From: a virus
Reading direction: 5' to 3' (one strand)
Virus record (IMG/VR): IMGVR_UViG_3300009180_000022
Length of the DNA stretch: 64,000 nucleotides
The notes under the pieces are model-generated. The model saw nothing but the letters and a program-made list of their open reading frames with translations, searched no databases and was not told the origin of the DNA. The position numbers and the translations under genes were made by a program. Shown piece by piece: positions 19,891 through 43,816 of this stretch; position 1 is the first letter of the stretch; every line of letters starts with the position of its first letter.

Positions 19891-20121
19891 ATGGCGACAT
19901 TTTTATCGGAATTTGTTGATGGTGGGCCTACATGTAGTAGAGATGATTGCATGATTCAAGATCAAGGTGGAACCTCTACTATGGCATACTTCCCACCCAT
20001 CTATAACAACAACAATGTTAATATCAATCCTGATATGAACACTCAAACCTATAACAGAAGATGCCTTGCATGTGGTAAGGCCTGGACGGAGACATGGCAA
20101 AATGGTTCTAAAATTAGTTGA
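19891..20121 (+). CDS. Small zinc-ribbon-like hypothetical protein
   Basis: CxxxxC and CLACG; AAGGA RBS. Confidence 0.55.
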   Translation: MATFLSEFVDGGPTCSRDDCMIQDQGGTSTMAYFPPIYNNNNVNINPDMNTQTYNRRCLACGKAWTETWQNGSKIS

Positions 20122-20620
20122 TCCTTCTAGTGCAATTCTTAGTGAAAAAGTTCCTACTTTTGACTTTAAGAACCCACCCGTTAACTCTATGGAACTAGCA
20201 AGAGACTTGCTAGAAACTCTTATTGATAGAAAGTGTATGGGGCTATCAGCTAATGAATGCGGTCTCCCTTATCGTGTGAGTGTATTTCGTACAGAGGATC
20301 CACTTGTTATGTTTAATCCTCGCATCATTGATGAAACTACTGAACACATTATGCTTGAAGAAACCTGTGCATCAAACACAAACATGATTGTCAAGATCAA
20401 AAGACCAAAGATCGTTAAGGTTCGCTATCAAGACGCAACTGGTGAGTTTCATACAGAGAAGTTTATTGGCATAACAGCACGTGCGATCTTACACGAGCTT
20501 GACCATCTCAACGGAATCAACTATACTAGACGTGCGCACCCGGTACATCTATCGCGTGCACAAAACAAAAAGAAACATCTCGATAGACAAGTAGCACGTG
20601 AATTAAAGCTAGCTATATAA
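20102..20620 (+). CDS. def: Peptide deformylase-like protein (divergent motifs)
   Basis: GLSAN, MFNP, ETCAS (for EGCLS), HELDHLNG. Confidence 0.85.
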   Translation: MVLKLVDPSSAILSEKVPTFDFKNPPVNSMELARDLLETLIDRKCMGLSANECGLPYRVSVFRTEDPLVMFNPRIIDETTEHIMLEETCASNTNMIVKIKRPKIVKVRYQDATGEFHTEKFIGITARAILHELDHLNGINYTRRAHPVHLSRAQNKKKHLDRQVARELKLAI

Positions 20621-20671: not shown

Positions 20672-20848
20672 ATGTTTAAATTCAAAGAGGCTTTGACGCC
20701 CGATCCAACCCTGCATCGTAACATCAGCTTTGCCAAAAGCGCACTACGAATCTTTGCAGGTATCTTCCTTGCCATTGGTATTTACTCTATCGCAGGCCTT
20801 CTTGTGATCGCTGCTGAGGTGCTTGGAGTAGTAGAGGAGCTCGTTTAA
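20672..20848 (+). CDS. Small membrane protein, 58 aa (absent from ORF track)
   Basis: AGGAG RBS; MFKFKEALTPDPTLHRNISFAKSALRIFAGIFLAIGIYSIAGLLVIAAEVLGVVEELV; TAATG coupling to queE. Confidence 0.7.
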   Translation: MFKFKEALTPDPTLHRNISFAKSALRIFAGIFLAIGIYSIAGLLVIAAEVLGVVEELV

Positions 20849-21699
20849 TGAGTCGCCTTAAGGTTTCCGAGCTATTTTATTCTATCCAGGGTGAGGGTAG
20901 ATATATGGGAGTGCCAAGTGTATTCCTCCGTACATTTGGCTGTAATTTCACCTGTGACGGCTTTAATATGCCTCCTGGTGAAAAGAGCAATGAACGCAAT
21001 GTCATTGCAAATAATGCTGGTGAAATTAAAGTATACAAAGAACTACCTTTAGTATCAACAGGATGTGATTCATATGCGTCGTGGGATGTTAGGTTTAAGC
21101 ATCTAAGTCCGATGCTTTCTATTGATGCCGTAGTTGATGGCATATTAGACATTCTTCCTCATAATGAATGGAAGGACGAACATCTAGTAATTACAGGTGG
21201 TGAGCCTTTACTAGGATGGCAACGTGCATATCCTGACTTGCTGTCTCATTCAAGAATGGATAACTTAAAAGAACTTACATTTGAGACTAATGGTACACAA
21301 CCTCTATCTGATGAGTTATATGAGTTTCTTAGTGAATGGACATTTGCACGGGTAGGTTATGATAACCTTACATTCTCGGTATCACCAAAGCTGTCGGCTT
21401 CTGGAGAAAGCTGGGATGATGCAATTAAACCAGAGATTGTAAGTAAGTATTCTGCTGTTGGTTATACCTATCTTAAATTTGTAATAAGCAACCTAGATCA
21501 CCTTATCGAGGCAGAGACTGCAGTAGAGGCATACCGTGATCACGGATTTGATGGACCAGTATACTTGATGCCTGTTGGTGGCACTAGTGAGGTATACAAT
21601 ATGAATAACAGGCAAGTTGCCGAATACTCTATGGTTAAGGGTTGGAGATATAGCGATCGACTGCAAGTGCCGCTTTTTAAGAACGAATGGGGAACCTAA
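20848..21699 (+). CDS. queE: 7-carboxy-7-deazaguanine synthase QueE (radical SAM)
   Basis: ELFYSIQGEG, FLRTFGCNFTC...CDS, ITGGEP, FETNGT, VSPKL. Confidence 0.93.
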   Translation: MSRLKVSELFYSIQGEGRYMGVPSVFLRTFGCNFTCDGFNMPPGEKSNERNVIANNAGEIKVYKELPLVSTGCDSYASWDVRFKHLSPMLSIDAVVDGILDILPHNEWKDEHLVITGGEPLLGWQRAYPDLLSHSRMDNLKELTFETNGTQPLSDELYEFLSEWTFARVGYDNLTFSVSPKLSASGESWDDAIKPEIVSKYSAVGYTYLKFVISNLDHLIEAETAVEAYRDHGFDGPVYLMPVGGTSEVYNMNNRQVAEYSMVKGWRYSDRLQVPLFKNEWGT

Positions 21700-22178
21700 T
21701 GGCAAAGTTTATTTCAACAAAAACATACAATCAAATTGGACCAGTAGCATACAGGCAATGGCGCGCCGATAGTCACTGTAACCTTATCCATGGTTACGCG
21801 TTATCGTTTCACTTTGAGTTTGAATGTGATACATTAGATGCACGTAACTGGTGCATGGACTTTGGAGGATTAAAGCCTCTCAAGCAAAATCTAGAAGATT
21901 GGTTCGATCATACATTGCTAGTTGCACAAGATGACCCAATGCGTGAGCACTTGCTTGCACTTGGTAAGTTAAAGCTGGCAAAGATTACAGAGGTCGAAAA
22001 GACTGGATGTGAAGGTATTTCTGATTTCTTGTATGAGTATATCAACACTATCTTCTTACCTCAGTATGGTAAGACAGAGGCCGAACGCATTTGGTGCTGC
22101 AAAGTACAAGTACGTGAGACGGATGCAAATATGGCCATGCGTGTTGGTCATCGTGAAGATAATGAATTTGTAGGATAA
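21699..22178 (+). CDS. queD: 6-carboxytetrahydropterin synthase QueD
   Basis: CNLIHGY, MDFGGLK, FDH, GCE; context of que genes. Confidence 0.9.
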   Translation: MAKFISTKTYNQIGPVAYRQWRADSHCNLIHGYALSFHFEFECDTLDARNWCMDFGGLKPLKQNLEDWFDHTLLVAQDDPMREHLLALGKLKLAKITEVEKTGCEGISDFLYEYINTIFLPQYGKTEAERIWCCKVQVRETDANMAMRVGHREDNEFVG

Positions 22179-22180
22179 TT

Positions 22181-22876
22181 ATGACCGAGCGATATTTTTC
22201 TGATGTTATTCGTGAGAGGATGAATAAGGATGGTAAACGTTATTTTGCATGTGATAATATTTCTGAATATCTTGATGATCATGGACGAGATTTTCTCATC
22301 ACCGAACTGACTGAAAAGTTCAATGGAGTACTTGAGTCACTCCTGATCGATACAACGAATGATCCGAACAGTCAAGGTACAGGCAAGCGTCTGGCTAAGA
22401 TGTATGTTAATGAGATTATGTCTGGGCGTTATTATCCTGAACCAGCCTCTACTGCCTTCCCTAACGAAGGGAGTGAACGGTATACAGGTATGTTAGTTGT
22501 TCGTGCAGAACTTAAGTCAATGTGTAGTCATCATCACCAACCAGTTCGAGGTATTGCATACATCGGTATCATTCCTGGTAATAAGGTAATTGGACTTTCT
22601 AAGTATGCACGGGTTGCGCAATGGCATGCCCGCCGTGGGACACTACAGGAAGAATTATGCACCCATATTGCCAATTCAATTATGAATTCAACCGAGTCAC
22701 CTGATGTTGCTGTTTACATTGCTGCGCGTCATGGGTGCTGTGAAAATCGTGGATTGAACGCCCATTCGTCACTGACTCAAACAACCGTATTGCATGGCCA
22801 ATTCCATCAAGCAGATGTAAAGAAAGAGTTCTTCGACAACATTACGCTACAGCAATCATACAATGAGAAAATTTAA
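22181..22876 (+). CDS. folE: GTP cyclohydrolase I
   Basis: SMCSHH, VIGLSKYAR, LQEEL, HGCCENRG. Confidence 0.95.
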   Translation: MTERYFSDVIRERMNKDGKRYFACDNISEYLDDHGRDFLITELTEKFNGVLESLLIDTTNDPNSQGTGKRLAKMYVNEIMSGRYYPEPASTAFPNEGSERYTGMLVVRAELKSMCSHHHQPVRGIAYIGIIPGNKVIGLSKYARVAQWHARRGTLQEELCTHIANSIMNSTESPDVAVYIAARHGCCENRGLNAHSSLTQTTVLHGQFHQADVKKEFFDNITLQQSYNEKI

Positions 22877-22879
22877 CGC

Positions 22880-22908
22880 TTGCATTAATTAACGGAGTCA
22901 GTTATAAT
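22880..22908 (+). promoter_or_regulatory. Early sigma70-type promoter inside the modification cluster
   Basis: TTGCAT-N17-TATAAT with TAATTA after the -35, resembling the repeated early promoter. Confidence 0.75.
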
Positions 22909-22937
22909 TAACTATCTCTAACTTAATAGGTGTTATT

Positions 22938-23195
22938 ATGACTCAAGCAACTTCAAAGCCTCGTGTTAAGTCTGACGGTATCGGTGAAGATACTATGAAG
23001 ACTTTATATGAGGTATTTAATACAGCAAATACTGATGATTATAAGTTGATGTGTTTAGAAGTGATTGGATGCTCGAATGCTAAACCAGCTACCAAGCAAA
23101 GGTTTAATGATCTTATTACTCAAAGCAATAGCAAGGCTACTATGCTGACCCGGGTTACTAATTTTTTCTTAGCAGGTGAAGGAAAAGGTGTATGA
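22938..23195 (+). CDS. Hypothetical protein
   Basis: ORF after early promoter, AGGTG RBS. Confidence 0.65.
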   Translation: MTQATSKPRVKSDGIGEDTMKTLYEVFNTANTDDYKLMCLEVIGCSNAKPATKQRFNDLITQSNSKATMLTRVTNFFLAGEGKGV

Positions 23196-23605
23196 GCGAG
23201 ATTAACGGTAAGATGTATTTGGCGCGTTTCACGAATAGGGAGACGCGAGAGATAGAGTTCTATAAGTTCGGTCATACTCATTCGTATGATGCAATGGATC
23301 GATTTACATACGCCCCTGCGCAATACGAAAAGTGGAATATTAAGATTATGAAAACGGTCTACGGGCCGTTAGAACAGATGAAGGGCATTGAAGAGACCTT
23401 TAAAGCATTGTATCCAAAGAATCTATGGATCGATGAAAAGGTATCCGGTGTTACTGAAATTGTAAAGCTTGAGCAGCCTGCAATTGATCGTATAATTGGA
23501 TTGATGACTCAACTTAATGGTGTGTACTGGCGTCAACGTGAGCGCGAGAAAGCACAAGGTATTATTGACTATTTAAAGGTATTAGATGAAGAAGATCGCC
23601 CATGA
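23192..23605 (+). CDS. Putative GIY-YIG-superfamily (T5orf172-like) nuclease
   Basis: GKMYL...FYKFGHT...DRF...E pattern resembling a GIY-YIG core; 137 aa. Confidence 0.45.
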   Translation: MSEINGKMYLARFTNRETREIEFYKFGHTHSYDAMDRFTYAPAQYEKWNIKIMKTVYGPLEQMKGIEETFKALYPKNLWIDEKVSGVTEIVKLEQPAIDRIIGLMTQLNGVYWRQREREKAQGIIDYLKVLDEEDRP

Positions 23606-24374
23606 AGCCCCTATTGGTATTTTTAGTCGTATACAGGAAGTAACCGATTATGATTATGCTCTAGTACATTTGTTTGAAGAGCGTGTGGACTATTGGGAAA
23701 AGTTTGTACGGGCTAAGAAGATGGGGCGTGAGATTATTCTTGATAACTCTATTTTTGAATTAGGAGAGGCATTTGAGAAGGATAAGTTCTGTCATTGGGT
23801 AGAGAAACTCCTTCCCACCTGGTATGTTATTCCTGATGCGCTTGAGGATGCTGAGCGTACGGTTAAGAATGTAAAAGATTGGCAGCATTTTGCTGGTTGT
23901 AAATCGATTGGTGTAGTGCAAGGCAAGACCTACGAAGAAGTGAAATGGTGTTATCAAGAGATCGAACCTCTAGTTGATAAAGTGGCTATCTCATTTGACT
24001 ATCATTTCTTTATTGATATTGACCTCAATGGGTTTTTGCCCACGAAGTATCATCACTTTATGTACGGGCGTGATGCGATGATTCATCGCCTCCTTTCTGA
24101 CGGGGTTATTAATGAGAATAAACCTCATCATCTACTTGGGTGTGGGTTGCCTCAGGAGTTTGAAAGTTATAGGGAATTAAATTGGATTGAAAGTATTGAT
24201 ACATCTAACCCTGTAGTTGCAGCGATTAAAGGAATGACCTATAATGGACGCAAAGGCCTTGAAGATAAACCATCACAAAAGCTATTCACTATGCTGGATA
24301 GTAAGCTTAGTTCCTACGAATTACAGCTGGTACTGTATAACATCGAGTGTTTTAGGGCAATTGTAAATGGCTAA
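23586..24374 (+). CDS. dpdA: DpdA-like (TGT-fold) 7-deazaguanine transglycosylase
   Basis: ILDNS, IPD, GVVQG, HHLLG, SIDTS TGT-barrel motifs inside a folE/queDECF cluster. Confidence 0.78.
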   Translation: MKKIAHEAPIGIFSRIQEVTDYDYALVHLFEERVDYWEKFVRAKKMGREIILDNSIFELGEAFEKDKFCHWVEKLLPTWYVIPDALEDAERTVKNVKDWQHFAGCKSIGVVQGKTYEEVKWCYQEIEPLVDKVAISFDYHFFIDIDLNGFLPTKYHHFMYGRDAMIHRLLSDGVINENKPHHLLGCGLPQEFESYRELNWIESIDTSNPVVAAIKGMTYNGRKGLEDKPSQKLFTMLDSKLSSYELQLVLYNIECFRAIVNG

Positions 24375-24906
24375 AAAGTGGATTGCGTTGTATAGTCAGA
24401 CTGGGTCTGAGATTGCAGCTTTGTCTAAGGCGATTGATCGTAAGCCAGATATTCATCTGACAAATAACGTTGTGTTTACGGCTAATACTATTGTTAGTGG
24501 TACTATACTGAGGGCAAAGCATTCATGGATAGTTTCATACCTTGAAAATCAGGTAATATACGATCCAAAAGATACCATCATTACACTTCATGGATACTTA
24601 CGCATACTTCCAGTAAGTTTGTGCACCAAGTATACCATCTATAATGGGCATCCTGGAGCTATTGATCTATACCCTGAGTTGAAAGGTAAAGATCCACAGG
24701 TTAGAACGTGGGAGAACAAAGAACGATATAAGTTCATCGGTAGTGTGGTACATAAGGTAGTACCGGAAGTGGATGCAGGAGAGATCATTAAAAGTGTTCA
24801 TCTTTCTAATACATCTCAATCGATTGATGATACATTCTCAATGCTTAGGATGTGTTCACTTAGTGCATGGACATTTGCAATGAAGGAAATAGGAATATGC
24901 GAATAG
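24367..24906 (+). CDS. PurN-like formyltransferase (DpdN-like, preQ1 formylation)
   Basis: GYLRIL, YNGHPG, GSVVHKV..EVDAGEI formyltransferase motifs; coupled to dpdA. Confidence 0.8.
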   Translation: MAKKWIALYSQTGSEIAALSKAIDRKPDIHLTNNVVFTANTIVSGTILRAKHSWIVSYLENQVIYDPKDTIITLHGYLRILPVSLCTKYTIYNGHPGAIDLYPELKGKDPQVRTWENKERYKFIGSVVHKVVPEVDAGEIIKSVHLSNTSQSIDDTFSMLRMCSLSAWTFAMKEIGICE

Positions 24907-25436
24907 GAATAACTGGTGCGCAGTCGGTAGGCAAGACTACTTTGCTTAATGCGTTACGTTCGGAAGATATGTTTAAAGATCTCGTCATATGTGATGAGGT
25001 TACGCGTAGGGTTAAGGGTTATGGTTTGCCAATTAATGAGGCTGGTAATGATATAACACAACGGCTTATAATGAACGAGCATGTGGTCAATGTATTTTTG
25101 TATGACAATATGATTACCGATCGTACAGTGCTAGACGGATTAGTTTATAGCAGCTATTTGCTCAAAAATCGTAAAGTTAGTATTGATACATTCAGGTATG
25201 TGTATGATGTATACACTAAAGTAACACCCTATTATGATTATATTTTTTATATTGAGCCTGAGTTTGATATAGAAAATGACGGTACGCGTAGTGTGGATGT
25301 AGAGTTTAGGAATGAAATAGCTAGTCTGTTTGAGAGTTTAATATACCAGCATAAGATGGATGTTATTAGGATTGGTGGTTCAGTACGTAACCGCGTTAAT
25401 CAAATTATTGATATTATAGAAAAGGATAAAGAATGA
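24897..25436 (+). CDS. P-loop nucleotide kinase-like protein (NMP-kinase/AAA_28 type)
   Basis: GITGAQSVGKTT, ITDRTVLD, END.TR lid. Confidence 0.75.
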   Translation: MRIGITGAQSVGKTTLLNALRSEDMFKDLVICDEVTRRVKGYGLPINEAGNDITQRLIMNEHVVNVFLYDNMITDRTVLDGLVYSSYLLKNRKVSIDTFRYVYDVYTKVTPYYDYIFYIEPEFDIENDGTRSVDVEFRNEIASLFESLIYQHKMDVIRIGGSVRNRVNQIIDIIEKDKE

Positions 25437-26347
25437 GCGAAATCGAAGATATTGCAAGCGTTCACCTAGGTAAGGCAGGTGATGGTACGGTAGTTAAACC
25501 TTATATTACACCTGATGAAGTAGATCCAGGATTGCTGGTATCTATTCCACGGTATCTTAATCGTACTGCGTATGGTATTGAGGAAGATAATCTGCCGTTT
25601 GCTGGGTATGATGTGTGGAATGCATATGAGTTTTCTACGCTATTAAAGAATGGATTTCCAATTTCTGGGCTAGTAAAGTTTGCATATCCAGCTGATTCTC
25701 CAAATATTGTAGAGAGTAAATCGGTTAAGCTTTACCTCAACTCATATAACATGGCCAGTGTTATTGATAACTGGGAAGATGTTTATATACTCGAGGATAA
25801 GATTACCGCCGATCTCGAGAAAGCTGTCGGGGCCCAGGTAAATGTTAACATCTTCCAGGGTGATCTGGATACTATTAGGCCAGTTGCAGGTGATTTTACA
25901 TTGCTTGAGTCATACTGTAACATTCCTAATATGGAATTTAACAGCTACGAAGAATCATCAGATATTCTAGAAGTAGTTCCAAGTATTGGTCGTTACGAGC
26001 GTTGGCGTTCGCACTCACTCCGCTCCAATTGCCGGGTAACAAATCAACCGGACTGGGGTGATGTGTATGTTCATATTAAGGGTGAGCTTAGCGTGACACC
26101 AGAATCACTTTTGAAGTATATCATTTCTATGAGAAAAGAGAATCACTTCCACGAAGAGATTTGCGAGTGTATCTATACCAGGCTTAATGCATTGCTTGCA
26201 CCAGATGAGCTGCTAGTTACATGCTTGTATACTCGTCGTGGAGGTATTGATATTAATCCCGTTCGTAGTAGCAATCCTTTCCTGATGTATCGTTATACGC
26301 CAATCATTGACGTTACTCAACCTAGTACAAAGACTGCCCGTCAATGA
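25433..26347 (+). CDS. queF: NADPH-dependent preQ0 reductase QueF (two-domain type)
   Basis: QueF motif ESKSVKLYLNS, CRVTNQPDWG, FHEEICE, YTRRGGIDINP. Confidence 0.93.
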   Translation: MSEIEDIASVHLGKAGDGTVVKPYITPDEVDPGLLVSIPRYLNRTAYGIEEDNLPFAGYDVWNAYEFSTLLKNGFPISGLVKFAYPADSPNIVESKSVKLYLNSYNMASVIDNWEDVYILEDKITADLEKAVGAQVNVNIFQGDLDTIRPVAGDFTLLESYCNIPNMEFNSYEESSDILEVVPSIGRYERWRSHSLRSNCRVTNQPDWGDVYVHIKGELSVTPESLLKYIISMRKENHFHEEICECIYTRLNALLAPDELLVTCLYTRRGGIDINPVRSSNPFLMYRYTPIIDVTQPSTKTARQ

Positions 26348-26550
26348 TTGATAAAAATGTAGAGGCCATTCGTCAGTCATTACTCGAACGAATGGAAAAA
26401 GGATATAAGAAATACGGCACTACTACCGAACGTGTCGATATTGACCTGATGGGATGGTTGCAGCATTTACAGGAAGAACTGATGGATGCTGCAGTATATG
26501 TTGAAAGGATTAAAGATGAACTTAGAACAAGCGCTAGCAAAACTACCTGA
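26344..26550 (+). CDS. Small all-alpha NTP pyrophosphatase-like protein (MazG-like)
   Basis: KYG...WLQHLQEELMDAAVY, EExxD metal-binding helix. Confidence 0.5.
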   Translation: MIDKNVEAIRQSLLERMEKGYKKYGTTTERVDIDLMGWLQHLQEELMDAAVYVERIKDELRTSASKTT

Positions 26551-27277
26551 TACAGATGCAAATGTTGTATCGGTATTGTCTGGAGGTCTTGATTCAACTA
26601 TTCTAACGTACATCTTAGTTAAGAAGTATGGTAAGGACCGAGTATTTGCTTTGACTTATGATTATGGACAGAAGCAGAGGCGTGAAATTGATATGGCTCG
26701 TGCAACCTGCATGTACATTGAAGTTAAACATAAGGTACTTGACTTGAGTATACTGGGTGATATTGTTAAAGATGTGTCAGCTAACATCAAAGGCACTGCT
26801 GTTGAGATGCCATCCATTAAGGATGTGCTTGGTGACCCACAACCAAAGACGTATGTACCTTTCCGTAATATGATCCTTAATTCGTTAGCATTCTCATTTG
26901 CTGAGTCGAATAAAGCAAGTCATGTGTTTACTGGATTACAGGTTCACGATCAGTATGGGTATTGGGATACGTCTCAACGCTTTGTTGATAGTATGAATAA
27001 CGTTGCTTCTCAAAACAGATCACATAAGGTATCCCTTGAGGCTCCATTTTCCGAACTATCAAAGTATGATGAGATTTTAATTGCCCAAGAGATGGGGGGC
27101 GTTGAATTAGATCTCACCCTCACATGCTATAATCCTGATGTTGATGGTCGTAGTTGTGGTAAGTGCCCATCGTGTAGTGAGCGTATTGCTAACTTTGCGA
27201 AAGCTGGCATTAAGGATCCAATTCCGTATAATGTAGAGATACCCTGGGATAAACTACTTGTAATGAATAACGATTAA
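26516..27277 (+). CDS. queC: 7-cyano-7-deazaguanine synthase QueC
   Basis: SGGLDS, YDYGQK, YVPFRN, TCY...CGKCPSC. Confidence 0.95.
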   Translation: MNLEQALAKLPDTDANVVSVLSGGLDSTILTYILVKKYGKDRVFALTYDYGQKQRREIDMARATCMYIEVKHKVLDLSILGDIVKDVSANIKGTAVEMPSIKDVLGDPQPKTYVPFRNMILNSLAFSFAESNKASHVFTGLQVHDQYGYWDTSQRFVDSMNNVASQNRSHKVSLEAPFSELSKYDEILIAQEMGGVELDLTLTCYNPDVDGRSCGKCPSCSERIANFAKAGIKDPIPYNVEIPWDKLLVMNND

Positions 27278-27278
27278 T

Positions 27279-27926
27279 ATGTGCGCTATAGTTGGAAGCT
27301 TTGATAAAGATAAACTTATAGAATTAATTGAGTTAAATAGCTATCGTGGTAGTCATTCATACTCAATCTCTATTTACTCCAGGGACATGCTATTCTCTGT
27401 TAAAAAGGAGATTGGTAAGATTAATTATAATGACATCTTCTTGATCGAAGGTCAGTATGGTATTGTTCATATTCAGGCACCTACTACCGAGGCAAAAGAT
27501 GAAGTAAATATCCATCCTGCTAGGTTCAGGCTGTCAGATCGTTACTATAAATGGCCGGCGTTATGGCATAATGGAATCATTAAGTCTTCTCATGTAAAAA
27601 AGATGCAGGTTAAATACGGTATCGATACTGATTGGGATACTGAACTACTACTTCGTGCTTATATTGAAGAAGGCGCCCGCGGGCTATCAGAAATAGATGG
27701 GTCGTTTAGTTGTCTATACTATGATAGGGCCTGTTTATTTCTTTTTAGAAACGATATCAGCCCTATGTTCTATGATAAAGATCTTAACATATCATCTACA
27801 ATGTTTAAAGAAAGTATATCGACCCCGGCTAATAGGATTCTTAAGTTGGATCTTCAATCTAGGGCGCTATATAATATAGGTGAGTTTAAAACGGTAGAGA
27901 ATCCTTATTTCTTTGCTGATGAATAA
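27279..27926 (+). CDS. Class II (Ntn) glutamine amidotransferase
   Basis: N-terminal MC nucleophile, RG, WHNGII, DTE, IDGSFS. Confidence 0.8.
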   Translation: MCAIVGSFDKDKLIELIELNSYRGSHSYSISIYSRDMLFSVKKEIGKINYNDIFLIEGQYGIVHIQAPTTEAKDEVNIHPARFRLSDRYYKWPALWHNGIIKSSHVKKMQVKYGIDTDWDTELLLRAYIEEGARGLSEIDGSFSCLYYDRACLFLFRNDISPMFYDKDLNISSTMFKESISTPANRILKLDLQSRALYNIGEFKTVENPYFFADE

Positions 27927-27944
27927 TTTGGAGATGATTACATA

Positions 27945-28445
27945 ATGAAGCATATTCTAGGACCTAACTCTAGGTCGTCCCTTACTGCTATCCGAGATGG
28001 AGATAGCCAGCCTAATGCAGTTGATCTAAGAGTCGATAAGATTTTTAAGATTAAAGAAGAACTGTTTGAAATATCTAACGAACATAAGAAGCATAGAGGT
28101 ATTGATTATGAAATCAAACTCGACCCTGAAGGATACTTTGTCCTCCACCCTGGTAGTTACGAAGTCGTTATGGAGAACGTTATTAGTGTGGGAGAACGCG
28201 AAGCAGGTTGGGTCATTACCCGCAGCACTCTTAATCGTAACGGTCTCTTCCTTACATCTGGTCTTTACGATAGCGGCTATAATGGTGTTATGGCCGGCGT
28301 CCTTCACGTTACAATTACTACTGCTAGGATTAAGAAAGGTACGCGAATAGGACAATACTTAAACTTCGATGCAGAGTCATTGAGTTTATATGATGGTGAT
28401 TACGGAATTAACAAAACCCACGATAAAAAATATAGAACGGAGTAA
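27945..28445 (+). CDS. Trimeric dUTPase / dCTP deaminase family protein
   Basis: AVDLR, RSTLNRNG, YDSGYNG, RIGQ, YDGDYG. Confidence 0.85.
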   Translation: MKHILGPNSRSSLTAIRDGDSQPNAVDLRVDKIFKIKEELFEISNEHKKHRGIDYEIKLDPEGYFVLHPGSYEVVMENVISVGEREAGWVITRSTLNRNGLFLTSGLYDSGYNGVMAGVLHVTITTARIKKGTRIGQYLNFDAESLSLYDGDYGINKTHDKKYRTE

Positions 28446-28448
28446 ATT

Positions 28449-29300
28449 ATGAAAATTGAAGTTAAAATTGAAGACTTACAGAAGAAGAAACTATTTGTCG
28501 CCACGCCCATGTACGGTGGGCAGTGTGCAGGTATGTACGCCCGAAGCATGGCTGATCTATCGGCATTCTGTGCCAAGTATAACATCCCATTACAGTTATA
28601 TTACCTTTTCAACGAGTCGTTGATTACTCGTGCACGTAACTATTGCTGTGATGAGTTTATGCGTTCAGATGCAACTCACCTTATGTTTATTGATAGTGAT
28701 ATTGGATTTAATCCACAAGACGTTATTGCGTTAATGGCATTGATGACTGATGAGAGTGAGTATGATGTTATCGGTGGTCCATATCCTAAGAAGTGTATCT
28801 CCTGGGAAAAGATTAAGATGGCTGTTGATAAGGGTGTGGCCGATGAGGACCCAAATAACCTCGAGAAGTTCGTTGGTGATTATGTGTTTAATCCTAAATC
28901 ACAACAAAAAGAGATTCCACTAGGTGAACCAGTAGAAGTATTAGAGATTGGTACTGGCTTTATGATGGTTCGTAAGAATACATTTAACAAATATGCCGAA
29001 GCATACCCATACCAAAGCTACAAACCCGATCATGTACGTACTGAGCACTTCGATGGTAGTCGTGAGATTATGGCATACTTCGATTGCATTATTGATCCAG
29101 TAAGCAAGCGTTACCTGTCTGAGGATTATAACTTCTGCTATCATGTTCAAAAGATGGGATTGAAAGTATGGTTCTGCCCATGGATGCAACTACAGCACGT
29201 TGGTAGTTATATATTTGGCGGCAGCTTGGCAGACCTGGCAAGTATCGGTGCATCAGCAACAGCTGACCAAGGGCAACTTAATAAGAAGAAGGGTAAATAA
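28449..29300 (+). CDS. GT-A-fold glycosyltransferase-like protein
   Basis: VATPMYGG, ESLITRARN, FIDSD (DxD), GTGFMM, LSEDYNFC. Confidence 0.65.
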   Translation: MKIEVKIEDLQKKKLFVATPMYGGQCAGMYARSMADLSAFCAKYNIPLQLYYLFNESLITRARNYCCDEFMRSDATHLMFIDSDIGFNPQDVIALMALMTDESEYDVIGGPYPKKCISWEKIKMAVDKGVADEDPNNLEKFVGDYVFNPKSQQKEIPLGEPVEVLEIGTGFMMVRKNTFNKYAEAYPYQSYKPDHVRTEHFDGSREIMAYFDCIIDPVSKRYLSEDYNFCYHVQKMGLKVWFCPWMQLQHVGSYIFGGSLADLASIGASATADQGQLNKKKGK

Positions 29301-30202
29301 TGAGCGATATATTTTCGTATGATACTACGGCCGGTCTTAAAATTGAAGAGAACCCGCTTAAAGCACAATACCCCGATCAGACTGATAATGAGTATTGGAG
29401 CAAAGTACCTCAACTCTTTGAGCAAGAGTTTGAGGATAAAACTAAACTAGAGACGTTTAAATCTAATTGGATTGTCAACAGAGTACCATTGTACCTTTCA
29501 ACATTCGGTCAGTTAGAAGAATCATATATTAAGGATACTCTCAGTCTTATTTTTAGACATGTACCTCCTTCAAGTCATGAGGATTTCTTAAGTCTTATGG
29601 TTGAGCCTCGTCGTGGACATACAGATAAATCTTATGCCGAAACTACTGTTTCATTCGATATTGACACTAATGGTAGTAAGCGAGTACTTAAAAATATTGG
29701 ATATCTTCGAAGCATCCGCGTACATAATGTGCTTATGTTTGAATGTACTACTAGCAAGAAAATTAAAGATTATGATGTAATAGTAGAAATTGGTGGTGGT
29801 ATAGGTGAGTTCGCTAAAATTGTTCGTGATACTGGTTTTGAAGGTGAGTATTATGGAGTAGATTTTCCTCCTATGTGCGAGATCAATCAATACTATAATG
29901 AGTTTAACGAAAAGAACTTTTATGTGAATGATGCAATTGACCTACCTGACTTCGGTGATAAGAAAGTTCTTGTTATTGGTACATGGTCATTTAGTGAAGT
30001 ACCTGTATTGTACAGGGAAGAAATTATTAGCAAGATTCCTGGATGTGATTGGCTTCTTACTATTCAAGCAAATGTGATGGGTATTGATAATCTGAATTAT
30101 TTCTGTAATGATTTTGGACCGCGCACTGGTAAGAGGAATCAAATCTATCATATTCAATTTCATCCATACCAAGGTGGTAACTTTTACTACTTTGTAACCT
30201 GA
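29300..30202 (+). CDS. Putative SAM-dependent (sugar O-)methyltransferase
   Basis: VEIGGGIG motif I, VDFP, WSFSE. Confidence 0.6.
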   Translation: MSDIFSYDTTAGLKIEENPLKAQYPDQTDNEYWSKVPQLFEQEFEDKTKLETFKSNWIVNRVPLYLSTFGQLEESYIKDTLSLIFRHVPPSSHEDFLSLMVEPRRGHTDKSYAETTVSFDIDTNGSKRVLKNIGYLRSIRVHNVLMFECTTSKKIKDYDVIVEIGGGIGEFAKIVRDTGFEGEYYGVDFPPMCEINQYYNEFNEKNFYVNDAIDLPDFGDKKVLVIGTWSFSEVPVLYREEIISKIPGCDWLLTIQANVMGIDNLNYFCNDFGPRTGKRNQIYHIQFHPYQGGNFYYFVT

Positions 30203-31836: not shown

Positions 31837-32130
31837 ATGAATAACATTATCATCGGCATCCTAACCTGGATTAAGAATGACTACAAGTCTTACCCTCTCC
31901 GCTTTACTATTGAGCTCATTGCTTGGGCTATTAGTATATGTTGTTCTATCACGATGGCACTCACCGTTCCAACCCCTCCCCTCCTGGCTCTTTATCCTAT
32001 CTGGATTTTGGGCTGTGGTATGTACGCTTGGGCTGCTTATAGTCGTAAATCTTTTGGTATGTTGTTTAATTACACCTTACTTGTAACCATAGACTCAATC
32101 GGTCTTATTAGGATGCTTATAAACTTATGA
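31837..32130 (+). CDS. Small membrane protein
   Basis: Three hydrophobic segments; inserted between gp44 and gp62. Confidence 0.6.
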   Translation: MNNIIIGILTWIKNDYKSYPLRFTIELIAWAISICCSITMALTVPTPPLLALYPIWILGCGMYAWAAYSRKSFGMLFNYTLLVTIDSIGLIRMLINL

Positions 32131-32702
32131 AAACATTTTTAGAAATCGGCGCTTGTGACTTTGATAATCTAGATCCGCTGCTAGATTCAGGATGGCGTGG
32201 TATATTAGTAGAGCCAATACCCCTTTATGCTGAGTCACTCCGTAAAAAGGTATTAAAGTATCCTAATGCCATTGTAGAGCAGGTCGCTATTACAAGCAGG
32301 GATGGAACTATCTCTATGGATAGTATGGATGATATCTCGATTACTGGTGTAAATAAGTGGAAGCGTGGCATTAGTCATATATCTCAAACACCTGGAGTGT
32401 CAAAGTATAACTATACTTCAGGCTCTATTACTACCACTACAAACAGTAAAAAGCTAATGGTTGAGTGTATGACGCTTGACGGTTTAATTGACAAACATAA
32501 AATTGAAACAATCGATCTATTACAACTAGACGTTGAAGGTCATGAAATTGTTGTATTAACTAGTTACTCTTGGAAGATTAAGCCAACCATAATGAAGATT
32601 GAACATAAATATGTCAATGATAATGATCTAGTTGCCTTACTCAACTCAAAAGGATATCATTGCTACTACGAAGCTAACGATATCTACGCTATTCTAAAAT
32701 GA
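32127..32702 (+). CDS. FkbM-family methyltransferase
   Basis: LEIGACD, WRGILVEP, IDLLQLDVEGHE. Confidence 0.85.
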   Translation: MKTFLEIGACDFDNLDPLLDSGWRGILVEPIPLYAESLRKKVLKYPNAIVEQVAITSRDGTISMDSMDDISITGVNKWKRGISHISQTPGVSKYNYTSGSITTTTNSKKLMVECMTLDGLIDKHKIETIDLLQLDVEGHEIVVLTSYSWKIKPTIMKIEHKYVNDNDLVALLNSKGYHCYYEANDIYAILK

Positions 32703-37126: not shown

Positions 37127-37405
37127 ATGTTTGTACGAGTAAAGGGTAAATTTTTGGATGGTTCGTCTCTTTGGTTCCCTCTGCCGGGGCTGACGAATGC
37201 TAGGGTGAAGGAACTTTTTGGAACTGGGCTCTCCCGCCAAGATCTCGAAAAGTACTCTGATTCGATCGTGATTCGTAGTGAAATGACGAACAATCTGTAT
37301 TCGCTGTACAAATGCTATGGAACGTGGAGGGTTGGCAAGATGGCCGGCGTCACGCCTATCCAGGCCGAATTCGATGCAAAAGAGTTGGGAAAGTTGTTGA
37401 CTTAA
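37127..37405 (+). CDS. Early hypothetical protein
   Basis: Behind cassette 37074; stop TAA lies in next cassette. Confidence 0.7.
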   Translation: MFVRVKGKFLDGSSLWFPLPGLTNARVKELFGTGLSRQDLEKYSDSIVIRSEMTNNLYSLYKCYGTWRVGKMAGVTPIQAEFDAKELGKLLT

Positions 37406-37450
37406 TTACGCCGTTTGACTATAATTGGATATCAACAGAGGAAACAACGA

Positions 37451-38332
37451 ATGAGCAACATCACATTTGAAGACGGTAAGTACGTAGGTCGCATCGATGG
37501 TAAGGTCGTGGTTCGTAGCACTAGCAAGTACTATGTTCAGAAGCGTGTAGAGGGCGTTCCTTCTACCTCGTTTGTGGCACCGGTGGAGGCAACTCCCGCC
37601 GTTGAGTTCCCTATCAACCAGCGTTTCGAATTTGTGTTCGATCTGGTGACGATGGTGGCTACGGGTGCTACTGCATCGGCTATCATTACCGGTGAGGGCG
37701 GATTGGGCAAGACCCATACCGTGGTGCAGGCATTGCAGGCTGCCGGTCTTCGTGATATCTCTGAGGTGCCAGCTGGTGAGGTTGTGCCTCCTAAGTCGAC
37801 GTATCGCCTGGTGAAGGGCTTCTCTACTGCCAAGGGCCTGTATCGTATCTTGGCCGAGAATGCTAATTCGGTGATCGTGTTCGATGATTGCGATAGCGTT
37901 TTGAAAGATGATAATGCTTTGAACATCCTCAAGGGAGCTTTGGATACGTATGGCAAGCGCTTCATCTCCTGGAACTATTCGCGTGATGATGACGATATCC
38001 CTCGCTTCTTTCAATTCAAGGGTGGCATTGTTTTCATCTCCAACAAGACGCTTCCTTCGATCGATCAGGCTGTTCGTTCGCGTGCTATGTGCGTTGACCT
38101 GTCTATGACCCTGGATCAGAAGATTGAGCGTATGGCGATGATTATGCGTGAAGATAGCTTCATGCCCGAGGCATCGATGGAATGCAAGCAAGCATCGCTG
38201 GATTTAATTAACAGCCTTAAGGAGAAATCTAAAGAGGTGTCTATGCGTACGCTTATCAAGACGACGAAGATTGCAATGGCCGGACGTCCTAACTGGAAGT
38301 CTTTGGCCGAATACATGCTCCTTCAGGGTTGA
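37451..38332 (+). CDS. Early P-loop AAA-type ATPase
   Basis: GEGGLGKT, VIVFDDCD, FISN, AVRSR; start at ATG after cassette RBS. Confidence 0.8.
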   Translation: MSNITFEDGKYVGRIDGKVVVRSTSKYYVQKRVEGVPSTSFVAPVEATPAVEFPINQRFEFVFDLVTMVATGATASAIITGEGGLGKTHTVVQALQAAGLRDISEVPAGEVVPPKSTYRLVKGFSTAKGLYRILAENANSVIVFDDCDSVLKDDNALNILKGALDTYGKRFISWNYSRDDDDIPRFFQFKGGIVFISNKTLPSIDQAVRSRAMCVDLSMTLDQKIERMAMIMREDSFMPEASMECKQASLDLINSLKEKSKEVSMRTLIKTTKIAMAGRPNWKSLAEYMLLQG

Positions 38333-38381
38333 TTTAATTACGCCGTTTGACTATAATTGGATATCAACAGGAGAACACGAT

Positions 38382-38993
38382 ATGAGCCACACATTACAGC
38401 CTTATGACATCAACGAAATCGGTAGCTCTGGCTACGGCCGGATCACGGTAAAGATCCAGGGCTACTGGTCTAGCGATCCTATCACGCTGTATGTTCAGCG
38501 TAATAACTACGGATCTGATGAAGGTTGGAAGACGTCTCTATCTCATAGCTCCGGTGGGCGTGATTCAAAGGAAGTGGTTTCGGACATGGAAGCCGCACGC
38601 AACTTCGCCAGTGCCATGCTTACACTGGCTGATATTGGTGAGACGTTGATTGCCGAGCAAGGCGTGGCCCTTGAGGCTGCATATGAGGCTGAACGTGCCC
38701 GGCGCCTGGCGGTGGCCGAGGCGGAGAAGGCTGCCAAGGTTGCTGCGATTGAAGCCGACCCAGCCATTGGTCTGGCTGTTGCATCAGGCATTGTGGCGGA
38801 GATGGCGGCTGCAGCTGCTAACACGTATGCAGTGACTCGTGTGTTCCGTAAGCGTGGATCTGCGGTGACTTCCAATGTCGTGGCACGATGCAACTACAAG
38901 ACCCGATTTGCGGTGAACGGATGCACAGTCTCTAAGAAGGAAGCCATCGAATACATCGCCTCCCACGCCGAATTGGTGGAACAAAAGAGTTGA
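38382..38993 (+). CDS. Early hypothetical protein (Ala-rich)
   Basis: ATG after AGGAG of cassette 38328. Confidence 0.75.
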   Translation: MSHTLQPYDINEIGSSGYGRITVKIQGYWSSDPITLYVQRNNYGSDEGWKTSLSHSSGGRDSKEVVSDMEAARNFASAMLTLADIGETLIAEQGVALEAAYEAERARRLAVAEAEKAAKVAAIEADPAIGLAVASGIVAEMAAAAANTYAVTRVFRKRGSAVTSNVVARCNYKTRFAVNGCTVSKKEAIEYIASHAELVEQKS

Positions 38994-39042
38994 TTTAATT
39001 ACGGGTGCCGACTATAATTGGATATCAACAGGAGAATACGAT

Positions 39043-39267
39043 ATGAACTTAGAAATCGGCACCCAGATCCAATACACATGCGCCCTCGGAACCCTGAAGG
39101 CTGTTGTCGCCGGCATCAAGATTGCCCCTACTGCAAGGAAGGGTTTTCTGAACACCTGGATCACCCTGGATCTGCCAGTACAGGAAGGCATTGAGCGTGC
39201 CCACAAGACTATGATCCCAGGTAACGATGGTGCCCTGAAGATGTTCAAGGTCGCGGTGATTGCATAA
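39043..39267 (+). CDS. Early hypothetical protein
   Basis: ATG after AGGAG of cassette 38989. Confidence 0.75.
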   Translation: MNLEIGTQIQYTCALGTLKAVVAGIKIAPTARKGFLNTWITLDLPVQEGIERAHKTMIPGNDGALKMFKVAVIA

Positions 39268-39330
39268 AAGGGTGGATTTAATTACGCCGTCTGACTATAA
39301 TAACGTATGTTCAGTAAGAAAGGTAACAAA

Positions 39331-39558
39331 ATGCAAGCACAAGTTGGATCTGTCGTGAAGACGTTTGATTTCCCTGGCCACACCGATTGCTACATGATCG
39401 GACTGGTAACCAAAGTGGAACAGGGTCTGCTGCATTTGAACACGATCAAGCGTGTGATGCAGGGCAAGGAACTGGCAGCACCTGCCACCTATCAGACTCC
39501 GGTACAGGGTGCCTCGTTCATGGATGCATCTTTCGAACGCGTGGTGGTGCTAGCATGA
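39331..39558 (+). CDS. Early hypothetical protein (SH3-like beta barrel possible)
   Basis: AAGG RBS behind cassette 39272; VGSVVKTFDF..CYMIG. Confidence 0.7.
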   Translation: MQAQVGSVVKTFDFPGHTDCYMIGLVTKVEQGLLHLNTIKRVMQGKELAAPATYQTPVQGASFMDASFERVVVLA

Positions 39559-39722
39559 GCATTATGAAGCACATCTATTCGCTGGTCCAGGAGCAGTATT
39601 TGGATGGTGATGACGTCGACGACATCGCCTATGAGTTAGCCGAACGCCTGGACCTTGATCCAGAAGATGCCATGTCTATAGTGCTGCGGCTGGTAGAGGA
39701 GCTGAAAGAGGAGTTGATTTAA
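39555..39722 (+). CDS. Small acidic hypothetical protein
   Basis: ATGA coupling; stop within cassette 39713. Confidence 0.6.
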   Translation: MSIMKHIYSLVQEQYLDGDDVDDIAYELAERLDLDPEDAMSIVLRLVEELKEELI

Positions 39723-39766
39723 TTACGTGATTTTCCTATAATTGGATATCAACAGGAGAACACGAT

Positions 39767-39859
39767 ATGACACTCAAAGAATTCATCCAAGGCACTGCCG
39801 TAGGCATGCTGTTTGCTAGCCCCCTAATCATCGAACTTATCAAGGATCTCTGCAAATGA
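39767..39859 (+). CDS. 30 aa hydrophobic peptide (absent from ORF track)
   Basis: MTLKEFIQGTAVGMLFASPLIIELIKDLCK after cassette RBS; ATGA overlap with next gene. Confidence 0.6.
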   Translation: MTLKEFIQGTAVGMLFASPLIIELIKDLCK

Positions 39860-40068
39860 ACACCGTAGCTTCTTACAACGCCTTTGCCCGTATGGCCACT
39901 TCCCTGGAAATCATGGGTTACAGGGACCACAATGCTGTGATCTCCCCGACAGACGCCGGTCGTGATGCCTTCACCTCCATGGTATATGACCTGGACTACA
40001 TGGGTCGGATCTCCCGTGAGGTCACCGAATACGAACTCTTCAACAGCCAGGAGTGCGAATTCGGTTGA
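39856..40068 (+). CDS. Early hypothetical protein
   Basis: Coupled ORF; stop TGA within cassette 40064. Confidence 0.65.
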   Translation: MNTVASYNAFARMATSLEIMGYRDHNAVISPTDAGRDAFTSMVYDLDYMGRISREVTEYELFNSQECEFG

Positions 40069-40117
40069 TTTAATTTCCGGTTATTACTATAATTGGATAT
40101 CAACAGGAGAACACACT

Positions 40118-40321
40118 ATGACACACTACGGAATGTTTACTGATATGGGCAACAGCTTGATAGCCCGCGTTGTTCTGACAGCACGTCAGTTTGCACTCAG
40201 CGAGGCCTCTGTACGCGCCATGCTGGAGGCGATTGCAAAGGATGAGACGTATAGTGAGGCGACTGATACCGCCGTTCGCGAAAGTGTGCTGGCCGATCTC
40301 CGCTCGCCCCGTCAACTGTAA
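40118..40321 (+). CDS. Early hypothetical protein
   Basis: ATG after cassette RBS; YGMFTDMGN, EATDTAVRE. Confidence 0.7.
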   Translation: MTHYGMFTDMGNSLIARVVLTARQFALSEASVRAMLEAIAKDETYSEATDTAVRESVLADLRSPRQL

Positions 40322-40331
40322 GGAGCAACCT

Positions 40332-40508
40332 ATGAATAACCCTATCCCTCGCTGCGGCCTGTTTGCAACCCGTACCCTGGAGGCTATACAGGCCGATATA
40401 GAAGGCCTTCCACCTACCCAGAAGGCACTGGTATACCAGTACGTGATGGCCACACTCAATGCATGTCATGCCATGGTGAAGGAAGAGATCGCCATGGAGT
40501 TGACTTAA
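40332..40508 (+). CDS. Early hypothetical protein
   Basis: AAGGAG RBS; stop within cassette 40499. Confidence 0.65.
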   Translation: MNNPIPRCGLFATRTLEAIQADIEGLPPTQKALVYQYVMATLNACHAMVKEEIAMELT

Positions 40509-40558
40509 TTACGTAATCTGGTTATAATCACTTGTGGTTGTTAAAAAGGATACACACT

Positions 40559-41091: not shown

Positions 41092-41144
41092 TTTAATTAC
41101 GGATATTGCTTATAATTGGACATCTAATCTACTAAGGAATCACA

Positions 41145-42134: not shown

Positions 42135-42180
42135 TTACGTCATTCTCCTATAATTGGATATCAACAGGAGAAAACGACTT

Positions 42181-43241: not shown

Positions 43242-43271
43242 CTTAATTACGCCGTTTGACTATAATAGGAC

Positions 43272-43815: not shown

Positions 43816-43816
43816 T

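Follow-up and report, generated by a model that had tools for sequence, protein, structure and literature searches.

Gene content of the cluster

The window, by which we mean the whole 64-kb stretch of viral DNA analysed here, carries on its plus strand a deazaguanine cluster (FolE-QueD-QueE-DpdA3-DpdN-QueF-QueC) resembling that of Flavobacterium phage immuto, a type of cluster that is already known. It begins with a QueE-like radical SAM enzyme (7-carboxy-7-deazaguanine synthase, 20848..21699), whose matches to Pfam Radical_SAM and Fer4_12 are weak and whose position is kept in related loci, followed by QueD (6-carboxytetrahydropterin synthase, 21687..22178; Pfam PTPS, 3.6e-15) and FolE (GTP cyclohydrolase I, 22181..22876; Pfam GTP_cyclohydroI, 1.7e-37). 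Downstream lie a conserved 85-aa protein (22938..23195), with homologues in 30 related loci and no match in Pfam or PHROG, and, just 5' of DpdA3, a 137-aa protein (23192..23605) with a possible T5orf172/GIY-YIG-like domain, a lead only, taken from ESM Atlas feature neighbours with PF10544 (T5orf172). A diverged PRA-PH was considered for this gene and rejected, since it has no profile similarity to the PRA-PH at the equivalent position in immuto.

DpdA3 itself (23586..24374), a minimal TGT-fold guanine transglycosylase, was recognised by its identity to the immuto enzyme, its predicted barrel and its Foldseek matches to TGT. The DpdN-like preQ1/dPreQ1 formyltransferase that follows (24367..24906) scores 25.4 bits against PF00551 (Formyl_trans_N), just below the cut-off of 26.1, and shares 38% identity across 181 residues with YP_010114479 of immuto, which marks it as kin to DpdN. 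The next genes encode a P-loop small-molecule kinase (24897..25436), assigned as AAA_28 and NadR-RNK/dNK/TMPK-like from Pfam, PHROG, motifs and locus linkage; a bimodular QueF, the preQ0 to preQ1 reductase (25433..26347; Pfam QueF_N, 6.9e-31, and QueF, 5e-18); a 68-aa helical-hairpin protein (26344..26550), a conserved ORF with a predicted two-helix model; and QueC, the preQ0 synthase (26516..27277; Pfam QueC, 5.2e-53), whose ORF opens at 26486 and has alternative start codons. The cluster closes with a class-II glutamine amidotransferase domain, a putative stand-alone partner of QueC (27279..27926; Pfam GATase_6/7, phrog_12378), a dUTPase/DCD-fold dNTP pyrophosphatase (27945..28445; Pfam DCD and dUTPase, with a PDB match) and a phrog_1574 protein (28449..29300) that is conserved 3' of the dUTPase-fold gene, assigned by PHROG and with faint glycosyltransferase hints.

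The names of the phages concerned and the T4-like genes that the window carries point to a myovirus background. Megablast against phage records returned no close relatives of the cluster, and the phage is known from metagenomes only. The 64-kb window yielded no phosphoribosyltransferase, and a search of its GC-rich 37-44 kb stretch for rRNA, tRNA, other RNA families, recoding and repeats found nothing.

In immuto, 100% of G is replaced by fdPreQ1 (PMC10516641). The two phages share the order DpdA3-DpdN-kinase-QueF, with identities of 52% for DpdA3, 36% for the kinase and 49% for QueF besides the value for DpdN given above. They differ in that the window has the dUTPase-fold gene, the separate amidotransferase, the phrog_1574 gene and the 68-aa gene, in place of which immuto carries an unrelated gene of 89 aa and a phosphoribosyltransferase, its DpdA3 being immediately preceded by a PRA-PH pyrophosphatase. 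Campylobacter phage CP220 (Firehammervirus), in which G is likewise replaced 100%, by dADG (PMC10516641), also has DpdA3 (gp056, 37% identical) followed directly by an AAA_28 kinase (33% identical), as here. CP220 departs from the window in making another base, in lacking QueF and DpdN beside DpdA3, and in a further kinase, encoded 5' of DpdA3 as a fusion with an HD domain. A modified-dGTP route was once proposed, in 2019, for the Firehammervirus phages, according to a citation in PMC6884629.

DpdA3 is predicted to be a bare TGT-like barrel

The AF2 model of the window's DpdA3 (pLDDT 90.8) is a bare eight-stranded barrel, and Foldseek aligns it with TGT structures at E 4e-7, probability 1.00 and TMq 0.6-0.7. 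Residues D53, D84 and D205 are invariant, with a spacing (31, 121) near that of D95, D130 and D256 in Salmonella DpdA (35, 126; PMC10164549), a likeness of spacing only rather than of residues placed by alignment. A DpdA3 profile run against PDB sequences found no TGT match, and the kinship of DpdA3 with TGT is visible by fold comparison only, that is, on the predicted model. PF01702 (TGT) misses DpdA3 and even the Nipunavirus DpdA, making it useless as a marker here. On an HMM built from the window's DpdA3 family, all five distant members score between 49 and 70 bits, CGPG_00065 of phiST being at 49.

All DpdA3 family members for which we computed a pI are acidic (4.7-6.8), while bacterial DpdA contacts DNA through a positively charged surface built from insertions (PMC10164549). 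The low pI and the small size of DpdA3 are weak arguments for a free-nucleotide substrate; the probable DpdA1 of phage Seurat also has only 267 aa. All three DpdA3 phages tested so far show 100% replacement of G, as against 30% or less for the other DpdA classes, and the authors of that comparison obtained no result with DpdA3 by itself in their E. coli model (PMC10516641).

The AAA_28 kinase

The sequence-only reading of this DNA had placed an NMP-kinase-like P-loop gene between the formyltransferase and queF, and such a gene is indeed present, in an ORF spanning 24867-25436. Its start is likely to be 24897 rather than the opening of the ORF, given that its relatives begin at MRIG. The protein matches Pfam AAA_28 at 56.9 bits (cut-off 27) across profile positions 1-164 of 164, and phrog_2107, 'thymidylate kinase', at 1e-27. 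Both the Walker A motif GAQSVGKT and the lid motif DDGxRS are conserved, and G17, G22, K23, T25, R86, D90, R141, S142 and R176 are invariant among 15 sequences. Solved relatives are found with weak E-values throughout: the nucleoside kinases NadR and dNK (8puu), and the NMP kinase TMPK (2pbr). The best of them are the ribosylnicotinamide kinase of NadR and the deoxynucleoside kinase, both small-molecule kinases. With NadR the likeness consists of the above-cut-off AAA_28 match and a shared lid, DDGxRS aligning with VDDGLRS of the H. influenzae protein (1lw7). The window's kinase differs in being a free-standing protein of 180 aa that lacks an NMN adenylyltransferase domain, and in that it is found in viral contigs only alongside DpdA3. 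The gene encodes a P-loop small-molecule kinase, whose phosphoryl acceptor may be the nucleoside or the dNMP of a 7-deazaguanine.

A small kinase travels with DpdA3

Co-occurrence of the kinase with this DpdA clade had been put forward as a check on the idea that the two act together on the nucleotide pool, and its outcome is strongly in favour. In eight of the eight isolate lineages compared, DpdA3 or a member of its family has a small P-loop kinase 0-1 genes away; among these we count this window beside immuto, CP220, CC_R7, phiST, MA9V-3, BSTP12 and Youna2; in CP220, DpdA3 is flanked by two. Among non-redundant IMG/VR DpdA3 loci with enough flanking sequence, 30 of 36 have the kinase. In the reverse direction, DpdA3 is present at 61 of 61 loci with a kinase 39-72% identical to that of the window, mostly 400-600 nt upstream of the kinase. 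Because these loci share ancestry, there are fewer independent events than the counts suggest.

By sequence, the kinases beside DpdA3 divide into AAA_28, AAA_18/33 and a Bacillus-phage group, three families at the least, and finding different families at one fixed position indicates non-orthologous displacement. Small siphophages of Bacillus and Weizmannia have the kinase directly upstream of DpdA3. Five phage genomes in which a kinase adjoins DpdA3 have no phosphoribosyltransferase at all, which links the kinase with DpdA3 rather than with guanine salvage. The linkage is also independent of the side chain of the base (fdPreQ1, dADG or dDG; PMC10516641), so that the kinase's target is more likely to involve the sugar-phosphate than the base substituent.

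There are exceptions. Six of the 36 loci have DpdA3, DpdN and QueF and no kinase in the 10 kb to each side, nor was one found elsewhere on their contigs, which are partial (at most 49% complete); a subclade of DpdA3 loci without the kinase exists. In mycobacteriophage PenguinLover67, with a canonical DpdA cluster, FolE is followed by a P-loop nucleotide kinase, which shows that kinases are not exclusive to DpdA3, while two of the three canonical DpdA clusters that we inspected have none. We found no mention of the kinase-DpdA3 linkage in the published accounts consulted, and the account that describes the DpdA3 phages is silent on the kinase (PMC10516641).

The 68-aa protein and the dNTP hydrolases

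The same reading had described the gene between queF and queC as an all-alpha, MazG-like pyrophosphatase with an EExxD motif. The ORF is real and conserved, its product is helical and the motif is present, E44, E45 and D48 being invariant or nearly so, and R16, K23-Y24, W38, H41 and Y52 are invariant too; the label of MazG or pyrophosphatase is not supported. In an alignment of 81 sequences the upstream ExxE (E14, E17) falls outside the conserved columns, so that the paired acidic motifs ExxE...ExxD are not conserved together. In Pfam none of MazG, MazG-like, PRA-PH or dUTPase_2 appears even at E 10, comparison with the PRA-PH family of related phages gives an hhalign probability of 0.2%, and searches of the PDB by sequence and by profile, and of the ESM Atlas, yield no link to MazG. 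The model (pLDDT 90.6) contains two helices only, where solved MazG-type proteins form a four-helix bundle; Foldseek finds nothing below E 6, and the best match of a wide VIA-align search (Z 5.0) is to unrelated helical proteins. From these searches taken together we reject MazG as a recognisable identity for this gene. In one relative it is joined to a genuine MazG domain, and the protein may form an oligomeric helix bundle. With 556 close homologues, 3641 representative clusters and homologues in 214 phage records, the gene is not specific to deazaguanine phages, two of the three contexts that we inspected having no annotated deazaguanine genes in view. Two distant relatives lie on contigs too short to show a gene context.

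The dUTPase-family gene noted at the end of the cluster (27945-28445) was confirmed by Pfam scores above the cut-offs, at 49.7 bits for DCD (cut-off 27) and 23.9 bits for dUTPase (cut-off 22). Its best solved relative is 9w59, a 'probable dUTPase' (1.7e-6). In a single pairwise alignment of low identity with the M. tuberculosis DCD (2qxx), it has no Glu in the aligned stretch that we take to be the site of the catalytic Glu of dCTP deaminases. The role of hydrolase, previously given to the 68-aa gene, would thus fall to the dUTPase-fold gene, which is a candidate for both the removal of dGTP and the supply of dGMP.

Here the co-occurrence with DpdA3 is moderate. Of the 36 loci, 34 have a dNTP hydrolase, either of the dUTPase fold (17) or PRA-PH (17) and never both, but the fold varies from phage to phage (dUTPase here, PRA-PH/MazG in immuto, MazG in phiST and HD in CP220) and the enzyme may simply be the one house-keeping dNTPase that the phage has. 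In two near-complete relatives the dUTPase-fold gene is the sole gene of the dUTPase family, and in one complete relative PRA-PH is the sole MazG-type gene; either enzyme may be an ordinary house-cleaner of dUTP or dCTP.

Discussion

That a dedicated small kinase and a dNTP-splitting enzyme travel with DpdA3 suggests, though it does not prove, that the modified base is built as a free nucleotide ahead of replication. Two systems are known to work in this way. In phage T4, with its hmC, and in the Z-genome phages (PurZ/MazZ/DatZ), one enzyme modifies the base at the dNMP level, a dNMP kinase accompanies it and a hydrolase purges the canonical dNTP. The window has a candidate gene for each of these roles, and they would follow the same logic, although its proteins share no homology with the enzymes of T4 or the Z-genomes and the modifier here would be a TGT-fold transglycosylase. 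To our knowledge, all characterised members of the TGT/DpdA superfamily act on a polynucleotide, and we know of no case in which a TGT-fold transglycosylase was shown to act on free nucleotides.

Gene identities and folds, and the linkage of the kinase to DpdA3, are what we observe; from these we infer each substrate in the route that follows. PreQ1 would be made from GTP via FolE, QueD, QueE, QueC with the amidotransferase, and QueF, and formyl-preQ1 would come to stand in place of all guanines, as has been measured for the related immuto. The dUTPase-fold enzyme would split dGTP to dGMP, removing the canonical precursor and at the same time supplying substrate to DpdA3, which would swap guanine for preQ1 on dGMP or dG. 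The AAA_28 kinase would re-phosphorylate the product of DpdA3, a host NDP kinase would complete the triphosphate, and the T4-type polymerase would incorporate it, with DpdN formylating at the level of the base, the nucleotide or the DNA. The 68-aa protein has no place in this scheme. The linkage of the kinase makes it more plausible that DpdA may act on dG nucleotides, as the sequence-only reading had supposed. Our preferred reading, to which we give even chances, is that the exchange takes place mainly on a free deoxyguanosine nucleotide or nucleoside, and not on finished DNA.

The main competing account places the exchange after replication: DpdA3 would exchange guanine for preQ1 in freshly copied phage DNA, the kinase, with the phosphoribosyltransferase where there is one, would recycle released guanine or host nucleotides to GTP for FolE, and the hydrolase would be an ordinary dUTPase or dCTPase. 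This is the model of the authors who defined DpdA3, proposed in 2023 on the grounds that every deazaguanine phage has a DpdA (PMC10516641). A phosphoribosyltransferase occurs only together with the kinase (both in 26 loci, the transferase alone in none, and neither in the six kinase-less loci), which speaks for recycling, yet the five genomes with a kinase beside DpdA3 and no transferase speak against it, as does phiST, where a second, separate kinase lies by the phosphoribosyltransferase and ribonucleotide reductase while another abuts DpdA3. Similarly, the kinase beside FolE in one canonical DpdA cluster has to be set against its absence from two of the three. No second hydrolase of either kind turned up in the genomes checked, which is in keeping with the post-replicative model, but full replacement would be hard to achieve by base exchange on DNA of packaged length. 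On balance we consider this account less likely than the pool-level route, though it is a live alternative and the most serious one.

Two other roles for the kinase appear less probable still. It could be a general dNMP kinase that replaces T4 gp1, linked to DpdA3 merely through the clustering of nucleotide-metabolism genes and not through its chemistry. The family name 'thymidylate kinase' and the weak profile match to TMPK 2pbr would fit, as would our failure to find a T4 gp1-type DNMK in five DpdA3 myophage genomes, a result that we also count for the pool-level route; but neither the presence of DpdA3 at all 61 loci with this kinase subfamily, nor the position of the kinase in the small Bacillus and Weizmannia siphophages, nor the use of different kinase families at the same position would be expected, and we think the proposal improbable. 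The kinase could alternatively be an end-healing enzyme, akin to polynucleotide kinase, that repairs nicks or abasic-site breaks arising from base exchange on DNA. AAA_33-type kinases, a family that we take to include polynucleotide kinases, adjoin DpdA3 in CP220 (in the HD phosphohydrolase fusion), phiST and MA9V-3, and one Bacillus-phage record names the gene under our DpdA3-like match polynucleotide kinase. The window's own kinase is AAA_28, with small-molecule kinases as its best solved relatives, and the cluster here has no phosphatase or ligase partner, making us highly sceptical of such a role.

Returning to the pool-level route, its fullest form is that DpdA3 would be the first TGT-superfamily enzyme to act on a free deoxynucleotide or deoxynucleoside and, with the kinase and a dGTP-splitting enzyme, would make up a third pre-replicative pathway of whole-base replacement beside T4 hmC and the Z-genomes, a claim that we put forward tentatively, at a little under even chances. 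Among 7-deazaguanine phages, only those with DpdA3 replace all of their G, and both a modified-dGTP and a post-replicative route have been put forward to account for it. The two-way linkage of DpdA3 and the kinase, across kinase families and side chains, makes the chemistry of DpdA3 cheaply testable. If true, a pool-level route would mean new enzymology for the TGT fold and an enzymatic way to 7-deaza-dGTP analogues, and the existence of such a third pathway would explain why substitution reaches 100% in DpdA3 phages only.

The deazaguanine cluster and its surroundings

The window is a portion of a T4-like phage genome, with genes for Gp23 capsid protein, UvsY, UvsW, the gp45 clamp, the clamp loader, RegA, a B-family polymerase and UvsX; nearly all genes lie on the plus strand, and GC content is ~39%. 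Comparing the cluster with phage records, we found no near DNA-level relative among isolated phages. The deazaguanine genes form a co-directional block (20848-29300) that runs QueE, QueD, FolE, two small genes (85 and 137 residues), DpdA3, a DpdN-like formyltransferase, an AAA_28 P-loop kinase, a bimodular QueF, a 68-residue gene, QueC, a stand-alone class-II amidotransferase, a dUTPase/DCD-fold gene and a phrog_1574 gene. The order DpdA3-DpdN-kinase-QueF is common to the window and Flavobacterium phage immuto, in which complete replacement of dG by formyl-dPreQ1 has been measured and for which the formyltransferase was named DpdN (Cui et al. 2023, PMC10516641). The cluster as such belongs to an already known system.

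Several neighbouring features were observed. A phage-encoded peptide deformylase (20066-20620; Pfam 2e-28) lies directly 5' of QueE and has homologues in 26 related DpdA3 loci, its link to formyl metabolism or DpdN being hypothetical. The 137-residue gene (23192-23605) abuts the DpdA3 start and, by language-model features, resembles a T5orf172/GIY-YIG-type domain; it could represent a mobile or DNA-binding element instead of a pathway enzyme. The phrog_1574 protein, with faint glycosyltransferase hints, and a weak methyltransferase-like ORF (28449-30202) follow 3' of the dUTPase-fold gene; phrog_1574 is kept at that place in dUTPase-type loci and may be a pathway member. Further candidates for nucleic-acid modification or repair (at 32127-32702, 51603-53185, 55847-56731 and 46536-47642) are an FkbM-type methyltransferase between clamp-loader genes and, elsewhere, two metallophosphoesterases with a family-2 glycosyltransferase, and an RNA ligase. 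Inside the phage genome, ~7 kb at 37300-44300 is GC-rich (0.46-0.51 against ~0.39) and ORF-poor, and recoding TAG=Q or TGA=W does not open it. Searches there gave neither tRNAs nor tandem repeats, and Rfam matched nothing even at E 0.1; similarity to hypothetical genes in other large phages is confined to ~240 nt (around 43550-43790).

The protein encoded at 23586-24374, 262 residues long and with no Pfam match, shares 52% identity with the immuto enzyme and so is a DpdA3 in the sense of Cui et al. 2023 (PMC10516641). Its AlphaFold model is a confident eight-stranded barrel, for which the nearest solved folds are tRNA-guanine transglycosylases. The family is large (4185 proteins found). Three aspartates are invariant and, compared by spacing only, come close to the Salmonella DpdA aspartates for acid/base catalysis, base recognition and nucleophilic attack (PMC10164549), so that guanine base exchange has likely been retained. 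The family members computed are all acidic (pI 4.7-6.8), whereas insertions in bacterial DpdA form a positive surface for DNA binding (PMC10164549), a difference that is suggestive only.

A P-loop kinase accompanies DpdA3

The kinase gene is genuine, matching AAA_28 at 56.9 bits and phrog_2107 at 1e-27, with a conserved Walker A motif and DDGxRS lid. The lid aligns with the NadR ribosylnicotinamide-kinase domain (1lw7); weaker matches are deoxynucleoside kinase 8puu and thymidylate kinase 2pbr. Since relatives begin at MRIG, the start is probably 24897, as in the sequence-only reading.

Wherever an isolated phage encodes a DpdA3 family member, a small P-loop kinase gene lies 0-1 genes from it. 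An AAA_28 kinase lies near DpdA3 in immuto (gp203), CP220 has DpdA3 between gp057 (AAA_28) and gp055 (HD + AAA_33), and CC_R7 has the order QueC-DpdA3-AAA_28-DNA polymerase. AAA_18/33 kinases occur in Cellulophaga phage phiST (CGPG_00066, 46381-46860, minus strand, between DpdL and DpdA3) and 5' of DpdA3 in Chryseobacterium phage MA9V-3, while Bacillus phage BSTP12 and Weizmannia phage Youna2 each have a P-loop protein, then DpdA3, then PolA. Five distant transglycosylases scored 49-70 bits on the DpdA3 HMM. CGPG_00066 was published as lacking homologues in other deazaguanine phages; it is a P-loop kinase (AAA_18 at cut-off), 32% identical to the MA9V-3 gene upstream of DpdA3. The DpdA3-adjacent kinases of isolated phages belong to three or more sequence families, and the bases of these phages carry formylaminomethyl, amide or no side chains. 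Different kinases at the same place, with different side chains, argue that the kinase would act on the deoxyribose 5' position, common to all these bases.

Clustering the best 80 IMG/VR loci at 95% left 36 non-redundant loci with enough flank; QueF is present in all 36, DpdN in 34 and the kinase in 30. In reverse, all 61 loci with a 39-72% identical kinase and at least 2.5 kb upstream contain DpdA3, usually 400-600 nt upstream of the kinase, a few of them lacking DpdN in between. The co-occurrence that the sequence-only reading had proposed to check is thus upheld for the kinase in both directions and in all isolates, and by neighbourhood this kinase clade is a dedicated partner of DpdA3. Among canonical DpdA clusters, those of Seurat and phiSM lack a P-loop kinase. 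Mycobacterium phage PenguinLover67, however, has one (Ploopntkinase3, PF18751, 5.9e-78; 4032-4589) after FolE in a canonical DpdA/preQ0 cluster, so the linkage is much stronger for DpdA3 yet not exclusive, and kinases may also function in deazaguanine systems other than those with DpdA3. A kinase-less DpdA3-DpdN-QueF subclade (6/36 IMG/VR loci, on contigs at most 49% complete) also lacks the phosphoribosyltransferase discussed below and the 68-residue gene, and keeps the dUTPase-fold gene.

dNTP hydrolases and the 68-residue gene

Profile and PDB sequence matches confirm the dUTPase-family gene as real; in one pairwise alignment its deaminase Glu is apparently missing. Among the 36 loci, 17 have a dUTPase-fold gene and 17 a PRA-PH (MazG-superfamily) gene immediately upstream of DpdA3; no locus has both, and two have neither. 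The phiST cluster has a MazG gene and CP220 an HD domain. Some dNTP hydrolase therefore accompanies DpdA3 almost always, with interchangeable folds. This recurrence fits a role in which the hydrolase would remove dGTP and supply dGMP. In near-complete genomes the dUTPase-fold or PRA-PH gene is the only member of its superfamily, and these could be ordinary phage dUTPases or dCTPases.

The gene taken earlier for an EExxD pyrophosphatase is a real, very conserved helical gene (3641 representative clusters; 214 phage records), modelled as a confident two-helix hairpin with E44, E45 and D48 invariant or nearly so. Its MazG identity is not demonstrable: Pfam gave nothing even at E 10, the PDB nothing by sequence or profile, structural searches nothing above background; no profile relationship joins it to the true PRA-PH pyrophosphatase found in related phages, and conservation does not extend to the first acidic motif. 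In the three contexts inspected, homologues lie between a helicase and a DNA polymerase processivity factor (Septimatrevirus), among small hypothetical genes (a Flavobacterium siphophage) and in a Nipunavirus of the Queuovirinae. In one relative the gene is fused upstream of a MazG domain, a hint of association but not of identity.

Pre- or post-replicative exchange

Does DpdA3 act on free dG nucleotides, as the earlier reading of nucleotide-pool replacement suggested, or on finished DNA? Taking the genomic evidence together, we give the pre-replicative route an even chance. In its favour are a dedicated kinase, independent of side chain and of phosphoribosyltransferase, the recurrent dNTP hydrolase, the restriction of 100% substitution to DpdA3 phages, and the absence of a gp1-type kinase from five DpdA3 myophage genomes. 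That the kinase is instead a general gp1 substitute seems improbable to us, and end repair we consider highly improbable. Against the pre-replicative route, all characterised TGT-family enzymes act on polynucleotides, the kinase-less subclade exists, the hydrolases may be house-keeping enzymes, and shared ancestry makes the locus counts non-independent. Cui et al. saw no DpdA3 action in E. coli (PMC10516641), which again favours exchange before replication.

Exchange after replication, with the kinase serving salvage, is a possible but less probable account. A phosphoribosyltransferase, which 26 of the 36 loci have and which occurs solely alongside the kinase, could convert released guanine to GMP and thence GTP for FolE, and such recycling would speak for the kinase serving salvage. 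The phosphoribosyltransferase was not found in the 64-kb window. Two observations weigh against salvage: five DpdA3 phage genomes whose kinase adjoins DpdA3 have no phosphoribosyltransferase, and in phiST a gp1-like kinase sits beside it, separate from the kinase abutting DpdA3.

The pool-level idea is not wholly new: as cited in PMC6884629, Campylobacter phages had been proposed to use a modified-dGTP route before DpdA3 was discovered, and the word 'kinase' is absent from PMC10516641 and PMC6884629. The kinase-less subclade offers a natural test case for whether full replacement requires the kinase.
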